Positions 3,704 through 55,513 of a stretch of DNA of 64,000 bases are shown here, piece after piece (the first letter of the stretch is position 1; each line of letters starts with the position of its first letter). The stretch comes from Bacteroidia bacterium (GTDB taxonomy: Bacteria; Bacteroidota; Bacteroidia; NS11-12g; UBA955): the NCBI GenBank assembly GCA_044357345.1, contig JBIKPR010000002.1, positions 21,914 to 85,913 of the forward strand, read 5' to 3'. The notes beneath the pieces were generated by a model. That model had not been told where the DNA came from. It made no database searches and saw nothing but the letters and a program-made list of their open reading frames with translations. The position numbers were made by a program, and so were the translations under genes.

Positions 3704-4237
3704 ATGAAGACAAAACTTTTTTTACTCATTGCAGCTTTTGGATTTTTTGTTTTTGGAGCCAAAGCCCAAAAGTTTGGCTACGTTGACACTGAATACATAT
3801 TAGGTCAAATGACCGAGTATAAAGCTGCGCAAAAACAATTAAATGAATTGTCGAGCAAATGGGAGGCTGATTTGAAAATATTAAAAGAAGAAGTTGACAA
3901 AATGTATAAGGACTACAAGGCCGAAGAAATTTTGTTAAGTGCTACTCAAAAGAAAGAAAGAGAAGATGCCATCGTTGCAAAAGAAGATGCAATGAAAAAG
4001 TTTGAACAAGAAAAGTTTGGCGTTAATGGTGAATTGTTCAAAAAGCGTTTAGAGTTAATCAGACCAATACAAGAAAAGATTTCTGTTGCAATTATTGCGG
4101 TTGCAAAGAAGAACGGCTTAGATTTTATTTTTGACAAATCAGCCAATATGAATATTTTGTTCAGCAATGCTAAGTTTGACCGCAGTGATGACGTGCTTGA
4201 TGAACTAGGTGTTACCCCAATTGATACAGATAAATAA
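3704..4237 (+). CDS. OmpH/Skp family periplasmic chaperone
   Basis: Signal peptide, then QKFGYVD and a long K/E-rich coiled-coil region, as in Skp/OmpH. Confidence 0.8.
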   Translation: MKTKLFLLIAAFGFFVFGAKAQKFGYVDTEYILGQMTEYKAAQKQLNELSSKWEADLKILKEEVDKMYKDYKAEEILLSATQKKEREDAIVAKEDAMKKFEQEKFGVNGELFKKRLELIRPIQEKISVAIIAVAKKNGLDFIFDKSANMNILFSNAKFDRSDDVLDELGVTPIDTDK

Positions 4238-18414: not shown

Positions 18415-18672
18415 GGGCGCCTTCCCGTGCCCTTTGTCTGCGCTTTGCTCCGGCTTTGTGGCCAAAGCGCCACAAGAGCTGCACATCGGTCATCGGGGCG
18501 CAAAAAGAGAGTGAGAATGAAAGCGAATGCGGATTAGGTTGACGAGGAGCATGTCATTCAAAATGAAGTAAACAACTACTGCATCATCTCGCTGATGGCG
18601 TTTTTGGCAGGAACTAAGCGCAACGAAGTGTATCGTTCTCACGAGCTTGCGAGTACTCCAACAACATGTTTC
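18415..18672. repeat. GC-richer mosaic intergenic repeat cluster containing a REP unit with an expanded loop
   Basis: 18568-18669 reads gtaaacaactac...ggcgtttttggcagg[about 48-nt block]ctccaacaacatgt. The arms match the RAYT-flanking REPs, and the inserted block matches 41199-41233 in the inverse orientation. 18506-18530 carries the gagagtgagaatgaaagcgaat module also seen at 48.66, 48.77 and 52.54 kb. Confidence 0.75.
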
Positions 18673-18740
18673 AATTTTTTAAATTTCACGTTGAAAGGTC
18701 TTTCATAAAGAAATTCCTTTGGGTTTTCCTTAATTAAAAA

Positions 18741-37673: not shown

Positions 37674-37733
37674 ACATGTTGTTGGAATCCCTGCCAACAA
37701 CGCCGCCAGTGCGATGACATAGTAGTTGTTTAC
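37674..37733 (+). repeat. REP unit (hairpin plus tail), left flank of RAYT
   Basis: acatgttgttggaatccctgccaacaacgcc followed by gccagtgcgatgacatagtagttgtttac. Confidence 0.8.
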
Positions 37734-37770
37734 GCTTGTAAGTAGTTCTAATTTTTTGTATCTTTAAGAT

Positions 37771-38304
37771 ATGAAAGCTAAATTTAATGAAACACTATTC
37801 TTCACTGCAACCGATCTAAATTGGATGCCTCTATTACAAAGTAAAACAAATAAGAATGATATTTTAGATTGTTTGAGTTATCTATCTAAGAATGACAAAT
37901 GTAGAATATATGCATTCGTTATTATGCCGAATCACATTCACTTAATTCTCGATTTAATTTCTATAAACAAATCTTCATTTCAAAACAGTTTTTTAGCTTA
38001 TACTGCTAAGCAATGTTTAAATCACTTGAAAAATACGAACTCTATATACCTGCCAAATTTAAAATCTACACAAGGTGATCGTCAATTTCAATTTTGGGAA
38101 CGTAACCCTTTTTGGACTTACATTCAAAATGAAGAATTAATGATTCAGAAAATTGGATACATTCATTTAAATCCAGTTCGCAAAGGCTATTTGAAATGTA
38201 AAACTGGTAGAGATTACTTTTACAGTTCCGCAAAGTCTTATGCAGATAAAACGGCTTATTTCGATTTTTTGAACTTAACCTGTCTTAATTATGAATGGGG
38301 TTAG
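37771..38304 (+). CDS. REP-associated tyrosine transposase (RAYT; IS200/IS605-like Y1 HUH transposase)
   Basis: HUH motif in FVIMPNHIHLIL and the catalytic-Tyr helix GYIHLNPVRKGY. 177 aa, and no tnpB partner. Confidence 0.85.
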   Translation: MKAKFNETLFFTATDLNWMPLLQSKTNKNDILDCLSYLSKNDKCRIYAFVIMPNHIHLILDLISINKSSFQNSFLAYTAKQCLNHLKNTNSIYLPNLKSTQGDRQFQFWERNPFWTYIQNEELMIQKIGYIHLNPVRKGYLKCKTGRDYFYSSAKSYADKTAYFDFLNLTCLNYEWG

Positions 38305-38319: not shown

Positions 38320-38379
38320 GTTAACAACTATATTAACATTTTTTTTATGGCGTTGTTGGCAGGGATTCCAACAACATGT
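38320..38379 (-). repeat. REP unit, right flank of RAYT (inverted)
   Basis: gttaacaactat...ggcgttgttggcagggattccaacaacatgt. The last 31 nt are the exact reverse complement of 37674-37704. Confidence 0.8.
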
Positions 38380-38408
38380 TTTAGGAAGTCTTGTCCTAAC
38401 TGTTTCCC

Positions 38409-41416: not shown

Positions 41417-41707
41417 GTGAAAAATCTCACAGTGATATTAGAAACATTAAAAGTTAATAAGCATAGACTTACTGAAAAATACGGTCTAAGTTTTTTGGCT
41501 GTTTTTGGTTCATATAGTCGTGAGCAGCAGCAATCAAAAAGCGATGTAGATATTCTTGTCGATTTCAAAAAGCCAATCGGTATAGAGTTTATAGATCTTG
41601 CGGATGAGCTTGAATCGATTTTAAAACTTAAAGTTGACCTTGTTTCTAAAAATGGTCTAAAACCTCAATATTTTGCAGTCATTGAAAAAGATTTGAAATA
41701 TGTCTAA
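41417..41707 (+). CDS. mntA: MNT-type nucleotidyltransferase antitoxin
   Basis: FGSYSRE...SDVDILVDF (GS...DxD polymerase-beta NTase motif). 96 aa, with an 8-nt overlap to the partner gene. Confidence 0.85.
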   Translation: MKNLTVILETLKVNKHRLTEKYGLSFLAVFGSYSREQQQSKSDVDILVDFKKPIGIEFIDLADELESILKLKVDLVSKNGLKPQYFAVIEKDLKYV

Positions 41708-42035
41708 TAGAGAGCCAATTTTGTTGATTTCAGATATATTAAGTTCTATTGCTAAAATAAAAACTTATATTATAGGATACACATTTGAAGGCTTTGTTAA
41801 TGATTCTAAAACATGCGATGCAGTTATAAGGAATTTTGAGATTATTGGGGAAGCTGCCAATAGAATTCCAGATGAAATGAGAGAACAATATCCGGAAATT
41901 AATTGGTTTAGAATACGTGGATTCAGGAATAGAATAGTACACGATTATATGGGGATTGATTACAGTATTGTTTGGGTCATTATTAAAAATGATTTGGATG
42001 CTTTAGAAAGTGAAATTTCTAAGATTATAATTTAA
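41700..42035 (+). CDS. hepT: HEPN (DUF86) toxin HepT
   Basis: RNRIVHDY (R-x4-H HEPN RNase motif). 111 aa. Confidence 0.87.
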   Translation: MSNREPILLISDILSSIAKIKTYIIGYTFEGFVNDSKTCDAVIRNFEIIGEAANRIPDEMREQYPEINWFRIRGFRNRIVHDYMGIDYSIVWVIIKNDLDALESEISKIII

Positions 42036-48314: not shown

Positions 48315-48349
48315 GGGAGCGATAAATTGATTTACATATCGTTAAATTA

Positions 48350-48378
48350 CCATTGGGGTGGAAAACACCCCAATGACA
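48350..48378 (+). repeat. 29-nt hairpin repeat module, copy 1
   Basis: ccattggggtggaaaacaccccaatgaca (10-bp stem), identical to 52244-52272. Confidence 0.85.
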
Positions 48379-48618
48379 GCATTTCGGTCACGAGCTCAGG
48401 GTAATCCCATTATATATGGTTTTGTAAAAACTTCAAAGCCCTGAAAGGGCAACATTTCTCTAGCCATGGGAATGCCCATGGTATATTACGGAATGCACAA
48501 ACAAATTATCGAATTTTCGCCCAAGGTTTATTACGTGAAGTACAAATGAGCGCATCGTTCAAAAGGCCCCTGAGACATCATTCTGTTTACGAGGCTTATT
48601 GGAGATGATGATCTTAAT

Positions 48619-48875
48619 CGAAATCACATCGAATTTCCTACCGCCCCCTTAAGGAGAGTGAGAGTGAATGTGAAAGCGAACACAGCAACAGAACTACTTA
48701 CATTGATAAGGAACAGGATTTAAGATTATTACCCGAAATTACATCGCATTTCCTACTGCCCCCTTAAGGAGAGTGAGTGTGAATGTGAAAGCGAACACAG
48801 CAACAGAACTACTTACATTGATAAGGAACAGGATTTAAGATTATTACCCGAAATTACATCGAATTTCCTACTGCC
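48619..48875 (+). repeat. 115-bp tandem repeat, 2.2 copies
   Basis: Unit starts (cgaaat.acatcg.atttcctac.gcc...) at 48619, 48734 and 48849. The unit contains gcccccttaaggagagtgag.gtgaatgtgaaagcgaacacagcaacag. Confidence 0.85.
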
Positions 48876-48879
48876 TCGC

Positions 48880-50979
48880 TCAACCCTGTTGTTTCACCCT
48901 ATGGTGTGTTTTCGGCCTTGAGAAAACTCTACCATGGGGCTCTTGCGCAAGCCCGCCGGGCTTGCTCCACAAAATCACATGCGGTAGACTGATGCAGGAA
49001 AGGAAAATGAAAAAATTGCTCCAAATGTTTTGAAGGAGAAATTCGGAAATTGAGTTGAAGCTGAGTATACAAATAAAAAAAAGGATTGCACCAAGTAAGT
49101 ATGGCAAGGCTTTTTTGTACAATTGAATGGAGCTCAAGGCTAAGCCCTTTTTTAAATCTTGCCAGGCATTAAAGCTGTGTTGGCAAATAAAGTATAATGA
49201 GAATGCCAATGCCAATGGTACGAAAAAACCTATAAGTAATATAAGGGCTAAATTGACAAAGTGTTTTTTGTTTTGATACAAACAAAGAAATAGACCTATG
49301 AATGCAAATGAAAGTGAGGTATAAAATGTGTTGGGATTTACTTGAATTTCAATGGTGTTTTTTGGCCATAAACCATCAATGTGTTTTAATATGTTGATTG
49401 ATTCTTGCCAATGTCCAAAAACGATGATAAATAAAATTAGTGCACCGATTAATGTGCCTTTTAATGCGGATTTCATAGTGTGTGTAGTTTCATCCAAACA
49501 CCCTAGTTCTGATTCGCCAAAATGATAGGATGAATAAATGAGAAACAGGGTCAGAGCCAATATTGGAGAGATGATCCACAAAGCAAAATTGAGGACAATG
49601 ATCAGAAGGTATTTTGCAATAAAATGTATAAGAGGCCTTGAGTCTTTTTTGTGCAAGTGGTCGACTGCACCATGCGGTATGCCAATGAGCAATAAGCCGA
49701 TGACAATCAGTGAATACATATAGGTTTCGGTATATGGACTGCCTTGTGAAAATATCAGAAAATAAATTGAAAGGGCTAATGCTATAATCAGGTTTTTAAA
49801 ACTTACATTTTTAAAAAGTTGTATGCATGCAGCTTTTATGAATGGTTGAAAGGGGAGGGAAGCAAAGATTTTAATTTCTTGTAACAAGGAAGTCTTTTCA
49901 TCGAGAAAAGAAAATATGGTAGAAATTTTCTGTGCCTTAAACAATTTGCTAAAAATTTCTTTGCCCAAATAAGGCCATCTTAATAAAATTATAAGAAGCA
50001 GGGAGTCGTAGAATTTGAATCTGTTTTTAGAGTTTAAAGCAGTTTTATCAAACTTGTTTTTGGAAATGTTTTCTGAAATTTCCTCAGCGTATAAAAACAT
50101 GTTTTTAAATCCATATCCCGTGCTTGGCTTGATGAGGTTGGCTCGTGCACCGGTATTGAAAACTCCCTTTAATTGGCTTGCCGGATGTATGTAATTGGTC
50201 ATCGGAATGCAACCTGTTTCATCGCTTAGAACTTGATAAGTTCCGAATAGGGCATCAATTTTTTTCGATAGAACATCTTTGGCGTAATCTATATTTATTT
50301 TTTCCGCACCAAAACGTGTCAGCTCGATTAATGCCTCTTTGTTTGAAAAAGGCAAGACATAAAAGAACTGCGTGAAATTGTCTTGCTCAACATCAAAATT
50401 CATCATCTCAAAAGTATTTGAGTTGAATACATCTTTTTCGAATTTTACATGCAGTCCGTAAAAGCTTTGATGAAGGTGTATATGGTTTGATGTTTCTATT
50501 CGCGGTGCTCTACTATCAAATACTTTTTTTGAATAAAATATGCCTTTGTCTGTATACAAGGTGTTAAAGCCATTGGCACTTTTAATGTCCTCACATCTGG
50601 CTTTGTAGGTTGTTATATTGTTTTGCTTAATCAGATCGGCAGTGTATTGGTACAAATCAATACTCCTAATATAATAATAAGGATGTAAATTGATGTCTTG
50701 TGCATTTGCTTTATTGATTTCAATTTGATTGTAGGAATGGCTGATAATGCCATTTAGTTCTTGTGCGATAGAGTCTTTGGGAGAAGCCCAAAAGCAATAG
50801 GTCTTGTCGTTTTCGTTTTTGTTTTCAGCTTCAATGACTGCTACTTTTTTGTCATTAAAGAAATTAGTTTCGATGAGTTTTTTAAAGATTAAGCTGTTGC
50901 TTGCACCCATGCCAATAAATACATAATCATAAACCAATTCTTGATCTATGTTTTCGTTGTATTTATGGATTTTACTCAT
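48880..50979 (-). CDS. fusion protein: lycopene beta-cyclase (CrtY) N-terminal domain plus Brp/Blh beta-carotene 15,15'-dioxygenase C-terminal domain
   Basis: The N-terminal ~390 aa has YDYVFIGMGASNSL (FAD fold), ETGCIPMT and KPSTGYGF. The C-terminal ~300 aa is polytopic, with GIPHGAVDH, SYHFGESE and further conserved His residues. ATG at 50979 is preferred over the TTG at 51003, which sits in the upstream terminator. Domain junction is near 49818. Confidence 0.8.
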   Translation of the reverse strand: MSKIHKYNENIDQELVYDYVFIGMGASNSLIFKKLIETNFFNDKKVAVIEAENKNENDKTYCFWASPKDSIAQELNGIISHSYNQIEINKANAQDINLHPYYYIRSIDLYQYTADLIKQNNITTYKARCEDIKSANGFNTLYTDKGIFYSKKVFDSRAPRIETSNHIHLHQSFYGLHVKFEKDVFNSNTFEMMNFDVEQDNFTQFFYVLPFSNKEALIELTRFGAEKINIDYAKDVLSKKIDALFGTYQVLSDETGCIPMTNYIHPASQLKGVFNTGARANLIKPSTGYGFKNMFLYAEEISENISKNKFDKTALNSKNRFKFYDSLLLIILLRWPYLGKEIFSKLFKAQKISTIFSFLDEKTSLLQEIKIFASLPFQPFIKAACIQLFKNVSFKNLIIALALSIYFLIFSQGSPYTETYMYSLIVIGLLLIGIPHGAVDHLHKKDSRPLIHFIAKYLLIIVLNFALWIISPILALTLFLIYSSYHFGESELGCLDETTHTMKSALKGTLIGALILFIIVFGHWQESINILKHIDGLWPKNTIEIQVNPNTFYTSLSFAFIGLFLCLYQNKKHFVNLALILLIGFFVPLALAFSLYFICQHSFNAWQDLKKGLALSSIQLYKKALPYLLGAILFFICILSFNSISEFLLQNIWSNFFIFLSCISLPHVILWSKPGGLAQEPHGRVFSRPKTHHRVKQQG

Positions 50980-51001: not shown

Positions 51002-51041
51002 AAAAAAGAAGGCTATCTAGAAAATTCCAAATAGCCTTCTT
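51002..51041 (-). terminator. hairpin plus T-run between the rhodopsin and crtY-blh genes (terminator/attenuator)
   Basis: The minus strand reads aagaaggctat-N14-atagccttctt followed by tttttg. Confidence 0.55.
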
Positions 51042-51787: not shown

Positions 51788-52243
51788 CTTGTATTTTTTT
51801 ATTGTTCCCTACTCTTGAGGCCTTTCGGATTTCGCCAATTTTTAAGTGTTTTTTCACTTTACGGTTCAATAATAACATAATCTTTTATAATTTGTTTTTT
51901 AATACGGGTAAAAAAAAATAAGTTATTGAAAATAAGGGCAATAAATTTTTTTAAATCTCTTTATTTTTGGCTTTCATCGAATTTTTATCTATTATAACTG
52001 CACTTTAAAATCCAGACTTGTTTATTTTATGTTAAACAAAGCTGGTTTGTGGGGGGGGTATAAATAGATCCCAGTAGTAGAGATTTTACTCCCCATGTCA
52101 GAATTCGCTCAAAGCTGCGAATACCCTGCACTAGAATTTTTTTTCACAAAATACACAGCAGGGCAAAGCGACACCGGGCAGGTTGTTGCGTCACGTAACG
52201 GGATGGATAAATTGATAAATTGTTTTATTATTTCGTTAAAGAA

Positions 52244-52272
52244 CCATTGGGGTGGAAAACACCCCAATGACA
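52244..52272 (+). repeat. 29-nt hairpin repeat module, copy 2
   Basis: Identical to 48350-48378 and in the same orientation. The flanking cgttaaa..accattgg is also similar. Confidence 0.85.
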
Positions 52273-52416
52273 CATTTCGTGTAGGACTCAGGGGGGCACT
52301 CCTGAGACAATATGTTTCACTTATTTGAAATTTTGATGTAAATGAGAAATTGATCCCTGCACAAGATCCTTCTAAGAGTTGCGGGAAATCTACAGGAAGC
52401 ATAAATTTATAATATC

Positions 52417-52476
52417 GTAAACAACTACACCATCATCGCACTCGTGGCGTTGTTGGCGAGGACTCCATCAACATGT
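52417..52476 (-). repeat. REP unit (dispersed copy)
   Basis: gtaaacaactacaccatcatcgcactcgt followed by ggcgttgttggcgaggactccatcaacatgt, which matches the RAYT right-flank hairpin at 27 of 31 positions. Confidence 0.75.
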
Positions 52477-52515
52477 TTCAATTATTTTAAAAAACGATAT
52501 TAGTTGAAATAACCA

Positions 52516-52664: not shown

Positions 52665-54380
52665 CTACTGATTCACAAACTCCACAAAAAACGTACTGCC
52701 TGCATCAGGTGTACTTTCTACCCAAATGCGACCGTTCATTGATTCGATTTGTGTTTTGGTCATATGCAAACCAAATCCTTTTGAGGATGGGTGTTTATGG
52801 AAGACTTTACCAATTTTAAACACATTGTTTTGATGCCTGTCTAGGTCAATACCTAAACCATTGTCTTTTATACTAAGAACAATATTGTCGTTGAATTTTT
52901 CGGTTTTGATTTCTATGCGCGGGCTGCGGTTGGGTGAATGGTATTTGAGTGCATTGCTGATAAGGTTATGCAATATGCTTTTCAAATATTTTGAAGGGAA
53001 GCGGATTTCTGGAGCTTCTTCACAATGAACAATGATTTCAGCTTTTAATTTTTCGATTTCAATGTCTAGACCTTGGCAAATGGATTGGACTTTTTTGCTG
53101 ATATCATTAATTTCCAATTTGACATCGATGTCTTGTTTCACTTGCAGTGATTCGACTAACTCGTTAAACATTTCATTTAAGCTTTGGACAACAGGATCAA
53201 TTTTGTCTATCATTTCCTTTTTCTCTGCTTCATCTTGCGCATCTTGAATGAATTTTATAAGCATTGAAATGTTAACCAACGGGCCTCTTAAATTATGGGA
53301 TACAATGTTGCAAAAATCGTTTAGTTGGGTATTTTGATATGACAACTGTTGCGTGAGTATAACTTGTTTGTTTTCCATTTCTATTCGCTCCGTGATGTCG
53401 ATGCCATAACCTATTACAATTTCAACATTGTTGTTAACGTCTAATATTGGAACCAGGTGTTTGAGTATCGACTTTTTTTCTCCATTTTTAGAGATTATGG
53501 TTTCTTCCCACTGAATCTCTTTTTTGAGGGTAATGGCATCATAGAATTTGTTTTGAGTATGAATGGCTTGTGTTATGTCTAGGCCAGTAATGTCGATACA
53601 ATCAAAATAGTTTTTGCCAATTATTTGTTTTCTTATTGACTCATCTGGAATGGAAGTGGGATTGATGAACAAATAGTTTTGTTTTCGATCAAAAACCAAG
53701 ATGTTTGGTGGCAGACTGTTTAGGATGTTTTCGTAAAAAGCTTTGAGTTCATTGTTTTTTTGTTCAGCAATAACAATGTTGCTTATGTCTTGAAATATGC
53801 CAATGATAAGCGCTCCATCTGTGTTTGAATCAAGAACGCGTCCCTCGATATGAAAATACGCATTGGTGTTTGAAAGTTTTGCTCTGTCAAATACAAAGCT
53901 GCTTTTGTTTTTAACTGAATTTACAATTATTTTTGTTGATTCAACTGCGTTGTCGAAATGTTTTATGATGTGTTTTATTCCCTTACTGAAGTCAACATGG
54001 TGTTCATCAAACATTCGGATCAGTTGATCTGATAATTCTAGTTGGCGGGTATTGATGTCCCAAGTAAAGTTGCCCAAATTGGCAATTTTTTCTGCATTTT
54101 TAAGGTTGTAACTGGCTTTGGTTAGATGTGCAGTTTTCTTTTCAACGGTTCCACTAAGGGTGTTGTTTAATTTGTTGAGTTCATTGTTCTTTTTGAACAG
54201 TTCTTGTGAACTTTGAGAAAGAATGTTCTCAATGTGGGCAATGTCTTGGTCGTAGTTATAATAGGCAGAATTAACCACCTCGAGAAAAGCGTCAAGGTCG
54301 TCCTTAGTAATTTCTTGCAAAGAACCTAGATGGTCATTTACTTGTCTTTTTAGCAGTCTATGAAAATTGCTTTTAATCAT
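52665..54380 (-). CDS. cytoplasmic PAS-domain sensor histidine kinase
   Basis: H-box FCNIVSHNLRGPL. N, G1 and G2 boxes NLISNALKY, DNGLGID and GFGLHMTK. Coiled coil plus two PAS-like regions, no TM segments. Confidence 0.88.
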   Translation of the reverse strand: MIKSNFHRLLKRQVNDHLGSLQEITKDDLDAFLEVVNSAYYNYDQDIAHIENILSQSSQELFKKNNELNKLNNTLSGTVEKKTAHLTKASYNLKNAEKIANLGNFTWDINTRQLELSDQLIRMFDEHHVDFSKGIKHIIKHFDNAVESTKIIVNSVKNKSSFVFDRAKLSNTNAYFHIEGRVLDSNTDGALIIGIFQDISNIVIAEQKNNELKAFYENILNSLPPNILVFDRKQNYLFINPTSIPDESIRKQIIGKNYFDCIDITGLDITQAIHTQNKFYDAITLKKEIQWEETIISKNGEKKSILKHLVPILDVNNNVEIVIGYGIDITERIEMENKQVILTQQLSYQNTQLNDFCNIVSHNLRGPLVNISMLIKFIQDAQDEAEKKEMIDKIDPVVQSLNEMFNELVESLQVKQDIDVKLEINDISKKVQSICQGLDIEIEKLKAEIIVHCEEAPEIRFPSKYLKSILHNLISNALKYHSPNRSPRIEIKTEKFNDNIVLSIKDNGLGIDLDRHQNNVFKIGKVFHKHPSSKGFGLHMTKTQIESMNGRIWVESTPDAGSTFFVEFVNQ

Positions 54381-55513
54381 TTTTCAGAGAAAGACGTCAA
54401 AGTCATGGTTTGGTTGTGCAATTTACAATTTTGTTCGCCTTTCGATTTGAGCAATTCGCCATAGGAGTAAAATCCAGCAAAGTGTGTATGCTTATCGAAC
54501 TGGTCTGTAACGGCTTCGATCTCGTCTTGGGTTAATTGTTTTAGGACGAGTTTTCTTCCGACGCAACTTACCATTAACATAAGTTCAGGTTCAGAAGCGA
54601 TGTTCTCGCGAATAATGTTGGCTGCTTTTTCCGCGCCGTCGATTATTCGGTTGACATTGGCTTTCATCAAACGCACCGAAGCTCCTTTGGGGATATTCCC
54701 AGCAAAGGTCATGCTTTTATCGGCTTCGTTAATGCCTAATATCGTTCTTACCAACACTTCTGAATCTTCCGATTCGCGCATTTCTAAAGGGAAGAACAGT
54801 GCTGAGCCAGGCAGATCTTTAGACAATTCTCCAAGGTAAGATTTGTAGAGGTCTAGCGCAGGTTGATTGTCTATTTCATACACCACATTGTCTATGCTTT
54901 TGGTGACGAAACGGTCCATTCCAAAACTATCCCAACCACCGAATGAAGCGGTATGGGTTTGGATGTCGCCATAAAAACCGACAGCAGAAATACAGTTAGG
55001 GACAAATTGATTGCTTCGGTCGCATACCAAGGTTTCTTGGAAAGCTGCGCCGTCTCCTGCCAAACCGCCAGAGACATTTACATTTGCATCGAGCAATGAA
55101 TTGATGCCGTCCAACAAATGTGTGCCATTAACGGCAATGCCGTCAGACAAAATGAATACATGTTTCAAACTATCGGCTTTGAGCGATTTGGCAATGCTTT
55201 GTCCAACATCAAAAGAATTGCCCACTTCATTGAAATTGTAACTGCATTTTTTATACCGTGCTTTTTCTAATTTAACCGAGCATATTGAAAAAGAATGCTC
55301 CGAGAATTTTTTATTTGAAATTTCACCAGCTGTGCTACAACCCATGATATCAGAATCATGAAAGCAGGTGCTAATCTGTGATTTGATTTCTGGGTCAATT
55401 AGGAACATTTTATCTGAAAAAATAAAATGCAGGTCAAATTCTTTGGCCTGGAAATTCAATAAATGTTCAATTATTTGAATTTTGTTGTTGAAAATGAATT
55501 GAGTAATCTTCAT
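54377..55513 (-). CDS. FIST (N plus C) sensory domain protein
   Basis: 378 aa. The C-terminal FAGFYSYGE is typical of FIST_C. ATGA overlap with the kinase gene. Confidence 0.8.
   Translation of the reverse strand: MKITQFIFNNKIQIIEHLLNFQAKEFDLHFIFSDKMFLIDPEIKSQISTCFHDSDIMGCSTAGEISNKKFSEHSFSICSVKLEKARYKKCSYNFNEVGNSFDVGQSIAKSLKADSLKHVFILSDGIAVNGTHLLDGINSLLDANVNVSGGLAGDGAAFQETLVCDRSNQFVPNCISAVGFYGDIQTHTASFGGWDSFGMDRFVTKSIDNVVYEIDNQPALDLYKSYLGELSKDLPGSALFFPLEMRESEDSEVLVRTILGINEADKSMTFAGNIPKGASVRLMKANVNRIIDGAEKAANIIRENIASEPELMLMVSCVGRKLVLKQLTQDEIEAVTDQFDKHTHFAGFYSYGELLKSKGEQNCKLHNQTMTLTSFSEK

Follow-up and report, generated by a model that had tools for sequence, protein, structure and literature searches.

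Background and overview

Lycopene cyclase and beta-carotene 15,15'-dioxygenase are encoded by separate genes in the characterised systems. Blh 66A03 (UniProt Q4PNI0) and haloarchaeal Brp are stand-alone dioxygenases of this kind, and Pantoea-type CrtY is a membrane-associated cyclase that depends on flavin adenine dinucleotide (FAD). Natural fusions of a lycopene cyclase with a neighbouring pathway step are known from the fungal CrtYB/CarRA proteins. In the four-domain CrtI-CrtB-CrtYc/d-Blh protein of Thecamonas trahens, the cyclase domain directly precedes Blh (PMC10016063). The T. trahens and fungal fusions are eukaryotic and contain the unrelated, heterodimeric-type CrtYc/d. In contrast, the fusion described here is bacterial, has two domains and is of the FAD-dependent CrtY type. 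It is encoded directly downstream of a proteorhodopsin (PR) gene in a 64,000-nucleotide stretch of DNA from a Bacteroidia bacterium (contig JBIKPR010000002.1, assembly GCA_044357345.1). We refer to this whole stretch as the window, and coordinates are positions within it unless a related locus is named.

Marine Proteobacteria carry PR-crtEIBY-blh clusters, reportedly described by Sabehi in 2005 and Martinez in 2007. In those clusters, rhodopsin is likewise linked to the enzymes for its chromophore, but the whole pathway is present as six separate genes. The module in the window consists of two genes, and crtE/B/I are unlinked. The enzyme families and the linkage of rhodopsin to retinal genes are already well known, domain-architecture databases certainly hold fusion sequences, and the fusion would be mechanistically unsurprising to a specialist. 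The bacterial fusion is real, widespread, half-annotated and uncharacterised. We found no description or test of a bacterial CrtY-type::Blh fusion in the full-text open-access literature, although absence there is not proof.

A single reading frame with cyclase and dioxygenase domains

The genes and domains that make up the module are as follows (aa, amino acids).

48880..50979, minus strand: crtY::blh fusion open reading frame (ORF), 699 aa; Pfam and NCBIfam matches, relatives fused likewise
49831..50928, minus strand: CrtY-type lycopene cyclase domain, aa 18-383; Pfam PF05834, invariant residues, fold of the AlphaFold 2 (AF2) model
49699..49830, minus strand: junction, aa 384-427; last CrtY helix, K/R-rich stretch, hydrophobic helix TM0 (aa 394-411)
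48967..49698, minus strand: Brp/Blh beta-carotene 15,15'-dioxygenase domain, aa 428-671, nine further helices; PF15461, TIGR03753
51068..51787, minus strand: proteorhodopsin, 239 aa; Pfam Bac_rhodopsin, E = 8e-43

The frame of 699 codons begins with an ATG at 50979 and has zero internal stops. An alternative TTG start at 51003 (707 aa) is disfavoured, since the alignment of relatives begins at the ATG. The match of the N-terminal half to Lycopene_cycl (PF05834) covers aa 18-383 and almost the whole profile (positions 1-378 of 380), with E = 3e-37 and 128.9 bits where the Pfam cut-off is 23.4. The C-terminal half matched BCD (PF15461) over aa 428-671 and profile positions 2-263 of 267 (E = 2e-35; 123.3 bits against a Pfam cut-off of 28). 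It also passed the NCBIfam model for Brp/Blh, TIGR03753 (126.5 bits; cut-off 95.25), and thus belongs to the same Pfam and NCBIfam family as Blh 66A03 and Brp.

The initial annotation of this DNA had described one uninterrupted frame carrying CrtY and Brp/Blh domains directly downstream of proteorhodopsin. The profile searches bear this out, and all of the motifs that it quoted are present: YDYVFIGMGASN (aa 17-28), GCIPMT (aa 256-261), PSTGYGF (aa 285-291) and, in the Blh half, GIPHGAVDH (aa 433-441) and YHFGESE (aa 485-491). The rhodopsin gene is on the same strand, and the spacer between it and the fusion is 88 nt. A sequence search of the PDB with the fusion protein gave zero matches. The AF2 model (predicted local distance difference test, pLDDT, 83; predicted template modelling score, pTM, 0.67) has an alpha/beta N-terminal half and an all-helical C-terminal bundle.

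Conserved residues and predicted topology

Among 49 fused proteins with 25-69% identity, 27 columns are invariant. In the cyclase half, the FAD-binding motif GxGxxN spans aa 23-28, and conservation of its G23 and G25 is at least 90%. Within the motif FxYxLPx6LxExT, F205, E219 and T221 do not vary at all, and at least 90% of the sequences share Y207, P210 and L217. The same holds for K284, G288 and Y289 of KPSTGY (aa 284-289), where T287 is invariant. FxYxLPx6LxExT is an instance of the conserved cyclase motif FxYxxPx6LxExT, which contains the presumed catalytic Glu. The top Foldseek matches of the model were geranylgeranyl reductases, Tet(X)-like destructases and UbiH/UbiI (E = 1e-11 to 1e-9), and on this model the cyclase half has the fold of group-A flavoproteins (FAD-monooxygenase / geranylgeranyl-reductase). 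It thus resembles Pantoea-type CrtY in its match to PF05834, in the GxGxxN, FxYxLPx6LxExT and PxTGY motifs and in an FAD-monooxygenase-like model fold.

H436, H486, H601 and H667 are the only invariant histidines of the Blh half, and they are the Blh histidines that the initial annotation had asked about. In Blh 66A03, the iron site has been assigned to the plane of H21/H78/H188/H256, and H256 was kept in all 500 homologues examined (bioRxiv 10.64898/2026.08.06.743266). The spacing of the four histidines is 50/115/66 in the fusion and 57/110/68 in Blh 66A03. Like Blh 66A03 and Brp, the Blh half is predicted to be a helical bundle of at least nine helices with four invariant histidines in this arrangement. 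Unlike Blh 66A03, the enzyme forms the C-terminal half of a 699-aa protein, and the residue equivalent to H192 is not a histidine. A further difference from Blh 66A03 and Brp is the additional N-terminal helix TM0, which also occurs in stand-alone Blh of the lineage to which the window belongs.

In the AF2 model, helices occupy aa 417-671 in addition to TM0 (aa 394-411), and hydropathy and loop charges agree. The Blh half is accordingly modelled as a polytopic helical-bundle membrane domain. The distribution of K and R in the loops fits 10 helices with both termini in the cytoplasm. A cytoplasmic N-terminus of Blh, placed there by its own first helix, would make an end-to-end join to a cytoplasmic flavoenzyme topologically possible, and this could explain why the two are joined directly. 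We considered TM0 as an adaptor specific to the fusion and ruled this out, as the same helix is found in the stand-alone Blh proteins of two related loci, L088 and L094. TM0 therefore belongs to the Blh half.

The ratio of nonsynonymous to synonymous substitution rates (dN/dS) against five relatives, computed separately for each half, was 0.09-0.17. By this measure both halves are under purifying selection. Together with the conserved catalytic signatures, this suggests that each half is capable of catalysis.

The fused form is common in freshwater Bacteroidota

A single ORF might in principle be an assembly or sequencing artefact that joins two genes, and in some lineages the split crtY and blh are about one nucleotide away from the fused state at the junction. 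Against this, the identical 699-aa protein is encoded on an independent ENA contig, and full-length fusions were found in hundreds of independent assemblies from NCBI, JGI, ENA, Logan and Tara, including contigs of 2.95 Mb and 3.09 Mb. We therefore regard a frameshift or assembly artefact as ruled out for practical purposes. The point near 49818 that had been singled out in the initial annotation for a check of read support is a true domain boundary (aa ~387); the worry about a frameshift there is refuted by the same assemblies.

The best 120 clusters at 90% identity all contain both Pfam domains (45-100% identity). When 1.84 billion cluster representatives were searched exhaustively with HMMER, the result was about 100 full-length fused representatives of 50%-identity clusters (650-710 aa; matched stretch aa ~15-670), down to about 29% identity. 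When one genome per GTDB species was scanned, relatives were found in 273 genomes, and all 80 of those listed are fused (36-75% identity). Among the listed matches the carriers are almost all metagenome-assembled genomes (MAGs) of freshwater Bacteroidota. They are labelled Bacteroidota, Bacteroidia, Crocinitomicaceae, Chitinophagaceae (Sediminibacterium, Ferruginibacter), Saprospiraceae, Flavobacteriales and Sphingobacteriia; a few carry unexpected labels (Parcubacteria, Rhizobium, Burkholderiales), which probably reflect faulty binning. A protein search for a cultured carrier, with the protein of L031 (a 'Spirosomataceae' MAG) as query, gave solely uncultured or MAG sequences. Aquirufa has a rhodopsin and a TIGR03753 protein (PMC9163014).

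Database names cover one half of the protein: NCBI calls it a 'Brp/Blh' dioxygenase and JGI a 'lycopene beta-cyclase'. The statement in the initial annotation that the two are normally separate genes holds for the characterised systems. Fused genes are common in freshwater Bacteroidota, however, and exist there beside split crtY-blh pairs.

Split forms and the origin of the fusion

Split crtY-blh loci were found as a pair (L088) and with rhodopsin upstream (L091 and the marine Tara locus L097). A rhodopsin-blh pair of the type typical of flavobacteria was also found (L094). The protein P0126 has 394 aa and shares 55% identity with the N-terminal half of the fusion. In three independent samples, its gene overlaps that of a downstream Blh of 296 aa by 4 nt (ATGA). 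P0222 and P0249, the latter from marine Tara data, belong to rhodopsin-crtY-blh operons in which the two enzyme genes are 1 nt apart or overlap by 4 nt. The split operons L091 and L097 resemble the window in gene identity, order, strand and the hairpin that follows rhodopsin. The difference is that the window has no crtY stop codon, so that one polypeptide is encoded.

The split CrtY of L088 ends in ...LYIKK and a stop codon, and its Blh partner starts with MNKWRYIIAL.... These ends align exactly at aa ~388-394 of the fusion, which compared with the aligned L088 proteins has essentially no linker. In a rough neighbour-joining tree of the cyclase domain, made without bootstrap, split and fused forms interleave in one rhodopsin-linked clade. 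This clade is separate from the CrtYs of pigment clusters, and the remaining stand-alone CrtYs fall outside it. Two of these outside CrtYs were checked: one adjoins a carotenoid-synthesis gene, and the other (P0249) is that of a split rhodopsin-crtY-blh operon. The stand-alone CrtY-like proteins closest to the fusion are not from pigment clusters.

The simplest reading of the interleaving and of the overlapping stop and start codons is that the fusion probably arose by loss of a stop codon at such a junction, with at least one reversal. The ancestor would have been a rhodopsin-crtY-blh operon in which the stop codon was lost at an ATGA junction.

Rhodopsin and the fusion form a two-gene module

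The rhodopsin has the DTE proton-pump motif (D80, T84, E91), M88 at the spectral-tuning site (green type) and the Schiff-base lysine K223. Its closest PDB entries are the proteorhodopsins 9jov/9jou and GPR (E = 2e-89). By tblastn on 82 fetched loci, rhodopsin was adjacent to the fusion and co-oriented in 68. Usually rhodopsin comes first and the spacer measures about 80-135 nt; the order is reversed in 8 loci. Clustering of all flanking ORFs revealed no other conserved neighbour; one membrane protein recurs in 12 loci. The gene surroundings are unrelated in relatives at 87%, 72% and 49% identity and on the 2.95-Mb contig. Rhodopsin and the fusion are thus the sole conserved neighbourhood across these loci, in agreement with the two-gene module proposed in the initial annotation.

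None of the window ORFs of at least 150 aa, assessed by Pfam or direct reading, encodes phytoene synthase, desaturase, hydroxylase or geranylgeranyl diphosphate (GGPP) synthase (crtB, crtI, crtZ, crtE). The module would therefore rely on unlinked lycopene synthesis. This supports the earlier view that lycopene has to come from elsewhere, as the 64-kb window holds no other carotenoid gene.

The two genes differ in their rates of change. Rhodopsin is 86-99% identical at the aa level in most loci whose fusion is 36-50% identical; in a few loci it is 56-76% identical. The dN of rhodopsin is about 0.05, compared with about 0.6 for the fusion, and at distant loci synonymous sites are near saturation in both genes. 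Constraint thus differs more than ten-fold inside one two-gene module (L002-L086). Recent horizontal spread of rhodopsin, as an explanation of its higher identity, was ruled out for the distant loci, as its synonymous sites are near saturation (proportion of synonymous differences, pS, 0.6-0.8). The identity of the rhodopsins points to strong purifying selection. In close relatives the dS of rhodopsin is 2-5 times lower than that of the fusion, which may reflect selection for codon usage in a highly expressed gene.

Two elements in the noncoding DNA of the module are of interest.

51002..51041, minus strand: intrinsic-terminator-like hairpin, 16-bp stem and U-run; RNA fold -23.5 kcal/mol, z = -4.1
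51806..51838, minus strand: DUF805b-like RNA motif in the 5' untranslated region of rhodopsin; Rfam RF02914, 30.2 bits against a gathering score of 35.6, E = 1e-5

The terminator-like hairpin is situated between the rhodopsin stop codon and the start of the fusion, with its U-run about 20 nt ahead of the fusion ATG. Related loci provided 66 distinct spacers, and a loose hairpin detector found a hairpin with a T-run in 64 of them, as compared to 83 of 330 shuffles (25%); two stricter detectors gave 43/66 and 33/66. The hairpin sequences vary by lineage. A scan for sigma-70 promoters and terminators gave no more matches than in shuffles, and its promoter model does not fit Bacteroidota. As the U-run is only about 20 nt from the fusion ATG, read-through would be the likeliest source of the enzyme mRNA, and the enzyme is probably made at a low level through a leaky terminator. 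Such an arrangement would yield much opsin and little enzyme.

The DUF805b-like motif is made up of a short hairpin and the sequence AGAGUAGG after it, and lies about 20 nt ahead of the rhodopsin ATG. At the matching site upstream of rhodopsin, DUF805 or DUF805b scored above the gathering score in 8 of 10 related loci. Copies identified with Rfam are at the following positions in these loci.

L005 9111-9179; L070 1980-2045; L084 5096-5161; L047 2308-2340
L037 5148-5180; L019 5129-5161; L023 5132-5164; L011 5149-5181

Of the 74 regions upstream of rhodopsin, 60 contain the motif, with the stem variants GGC/GCC, GGA/UCC and AGC/GCU. The link of this orphan Rfam motif with rhodopsin genes may be unrecorded.

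Proposed function and alternative explanations

The analysis has established which domains are present, which residues are conserved, that the genes are linked, that selection is purifying and that split forms exist. We consider it probable (about 0.8) that the fusion is a bifunctional membrane enzyme that makes the rhodopsin chromophore from lycopene. Its activities and topology, as well as read-through and channelling, are what we infer from the sequence. The CrtY half, cytoplasmic, membrane-associated and FAD-binding, would form beta-carotene by cyclising lycopene at each end. The Blh half would bind iron through H436, H486, H601 and H667 and, with O2, cleave the 15,15' bond to give two molecules of all-trans-retinal, which would bind K223 of the proteorhodopsin encoded upstream. 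Rhodopsin and the fusion would then be a self-contained module supplied with lycopene by crtE/B/I elsewhere in the genome.

Several observations weigh against this proposal. Unlike Pantoea-type CrtY, the cyclase half, besides being fused to Blh, scores below the NCBIfam cut-offs both for the lycopene cyclase family (TIGR01790, a subfamily model; 80.7 against 209.5) and for lycopene beta-cyclase CrtY (TIGR01789, an equivalog model; 43.9 against 215.2). By these scores it is a divergent member of the CrtY family that may be either a bicyclase or a monocyclase. The histidines were mapped onto Blh 66A03 by spacing and invariance, not by direct alignment with Q4PNI0. The lycopene-forming genes were not seen in the 64 kb that the window covers. 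Finally, the window copy has lost the end typical of the family, ...LMHxFYKxK, the last ~13 native residues having been replaced.

It could be speculated that the N-terminal domain is not a beta-bicyclase. It might instead be a monocyclase that makes gamma-carotene, from which one retinal and one acyclic aldehyde would be obtained, or it might act on a different end group of carotenoids. CrtY-family monocyclases are known in Bacteroidota, and their existence, the low NCBIfam scores and the fast evolution of the fusion (36-50% identity) between loci with rhodopsins of 86-99% identity are all consistent with this possibility. It is unlikely, however, as conservation extends to FxYxLPx6LxExT, the FAD motif and PSTGY alike, the Pfam score greatly exceeds the cut-off, and the strict linkage to Blh and rhodopsin fits the supply of a substrate with beta-ionone rings. 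Divergence from the curated CrtY models, and nothing more, could also be taken to mean that the CrtY-like half is a catalytically dead domain that binds carotenoid or acts as a scaffold, feeding or regulating Blh. This is very improbable given that the presumed catalytic Glu and Thr and the FAD glycines vary little or not at all among proteins of 25-69% identity and that dN/dS is 0.09-0.17.

Another possibility concerns only the window copy, which might be impaired by a repeat element that has replaced its native Blh C-terminus.

48880..48966, minus strand: non-native C-terminal tail, aa 672-699, SKPGGLAQEPHGRVFSRPKTHHRVKQQG, encoded by the inserted repeat element
48850..48967, no strand assigned: miniature repeat element of ~119 bp, overlapping the 3' end of the gene; 85% identical to L008 4714-4832

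DNA homology with most relatives ends at 48971 (aa ~670), M671 and Y675, each at least 90% conserved in the family, are missing, and aa 673-699 are disordered in the AF2 model (pLDDT ~30). On the other side, H667, one of the invariant histidines, is kept together with the entire Pfam BCD domain, the altered end '...LW' is common to the relatives P0002 and P0003 (87% and 76% identity), and the Blh half has a dN/dS of 0.14 against L002, so that it has persisted under selection. Impairment is accordingly improbable, though less so than a dead cyclase domain, and on these grounds we judge the gene in the window to be functional. The initial annotation had the frame right and overlooked that its 28 C-terminal residues are repeat-element sequence.

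Beyond the proposal that the fusion is a bifunctional enzyme, it may be a channelling 'retinal synthase'. Beta-carotene would pass straight to the Blh half and bypass the membrane pool, the supply of chromophore would be insulated from the xanthophyll or pigment pathway of the cell, and single-nucleotide changes at the junction would toggle the gene between fused and split states as selection on this insulation shifts. Blh is reported to cleave zeaxanthin poorly (2026 preprint). We put this extension forward tentatively and think it rather doubtful.

Repeat elements and neighbouring genes

The copy of the ~119-bp element in L008 is at a different site, upstream of rhodopsin. A related element is inserted in frame within a surface loop of CrtY in the gene of L004 (P0007/P0010; L004 10914-11036), where it reads ...HTRHRVKQER.... 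The stem of the element shows compensatory changes (CCATGGT/ACCATAGG compared with CCGTGGC/GCCACAGG). This structured element is reminiscent of the Rickettsia palindromic elements, which insert in frame. Directly after the stop codon of the fusion is a 115-bp tandem repeat (48619-48875; 2.2 copies, 96% identity), of which L002 has a single copy (3958-4041).

A direct repeat of 82 bp (85% identity) flanks the module at 48321-48401 and 52214-52293 and contains the perfect hairpin CCATTGGGGTG-GAAAA-CACCCCAATG. A mobile cassette bounded by these repeats is unsupported: in L002, the relative at 87% identity, the downstream copy is 8 kb off, beside a neighbouring gene of 302 aa. The repeats are probably ordinary intergenic hairpin elements. 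L002 4767-11812 corresponds to window 48402-48618, lies between the fusion and the 302-aa gene, and encodes a 2116-aa protein sorted by the type IX secretion system (T9SS) and a TPM_phosphatase. Both are absent from the window, which indicates an insertion/deletion polymorphism of about 8 kb just downstream of the module.

Directly upstream of rhodopsin, at 52665-55513 on the minus strand, two genes that overlap by 4 nt encode a protein with a FIST domain (378 aa) and a histidine kinase of the PAS type (571 aa). The kinase is also found upstream of rhodopsin in the close relatives L002 and L008 and is absent there in distant loci. Elsewhere, the window encodes T9SS sorting domains and GldH, which mark it as DNA of Bacteroidota. 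An ORF of 177 aa at 37771-38304 (plus strand) has a weak match to IS200-like Y1 transposases (E = 6e-5). Short repeats surround it (37674-37734 and 38348-38381) and recur at 18568-18683 and, upstream of rhodopsin, at 52416-52491; the whole looks like a RAYT (REP-associated tyrosine transposase) with elements of the REP (repetitive extragenic palindromic) type. At 41417-42035 (plus strand), an ORF of 111 aa for a HepT-like RNase toxin (E = 1e-31) has its start overlapped by the end of a preceding ORF of 96 aa, and the two are probably a HepT/MNT toxin-antitoxin pair.

Implications

The module occurs widely among lake Bacteroidota, with Crocinitomicaceae, Chitinophagaceae and Saprospiraceae among its carriers. 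As database names cover one half of the fusion, surveys of the completeness of the retinal pathway in freshwater Bacteroidota can wrongly score crtY or blh as missing. The fusion is also a ready-made natural candidate for microbial retinal production. Fused and split forms within one clade offer a natural experiment on whether the fusion of enzymes in a membrane pathway gives substrate channelling. If the proposed activities are correct, rhodopsin and one enzyme gene would be a minimal photosystem, sufficient to turn any lycopene producer into a phototroph.

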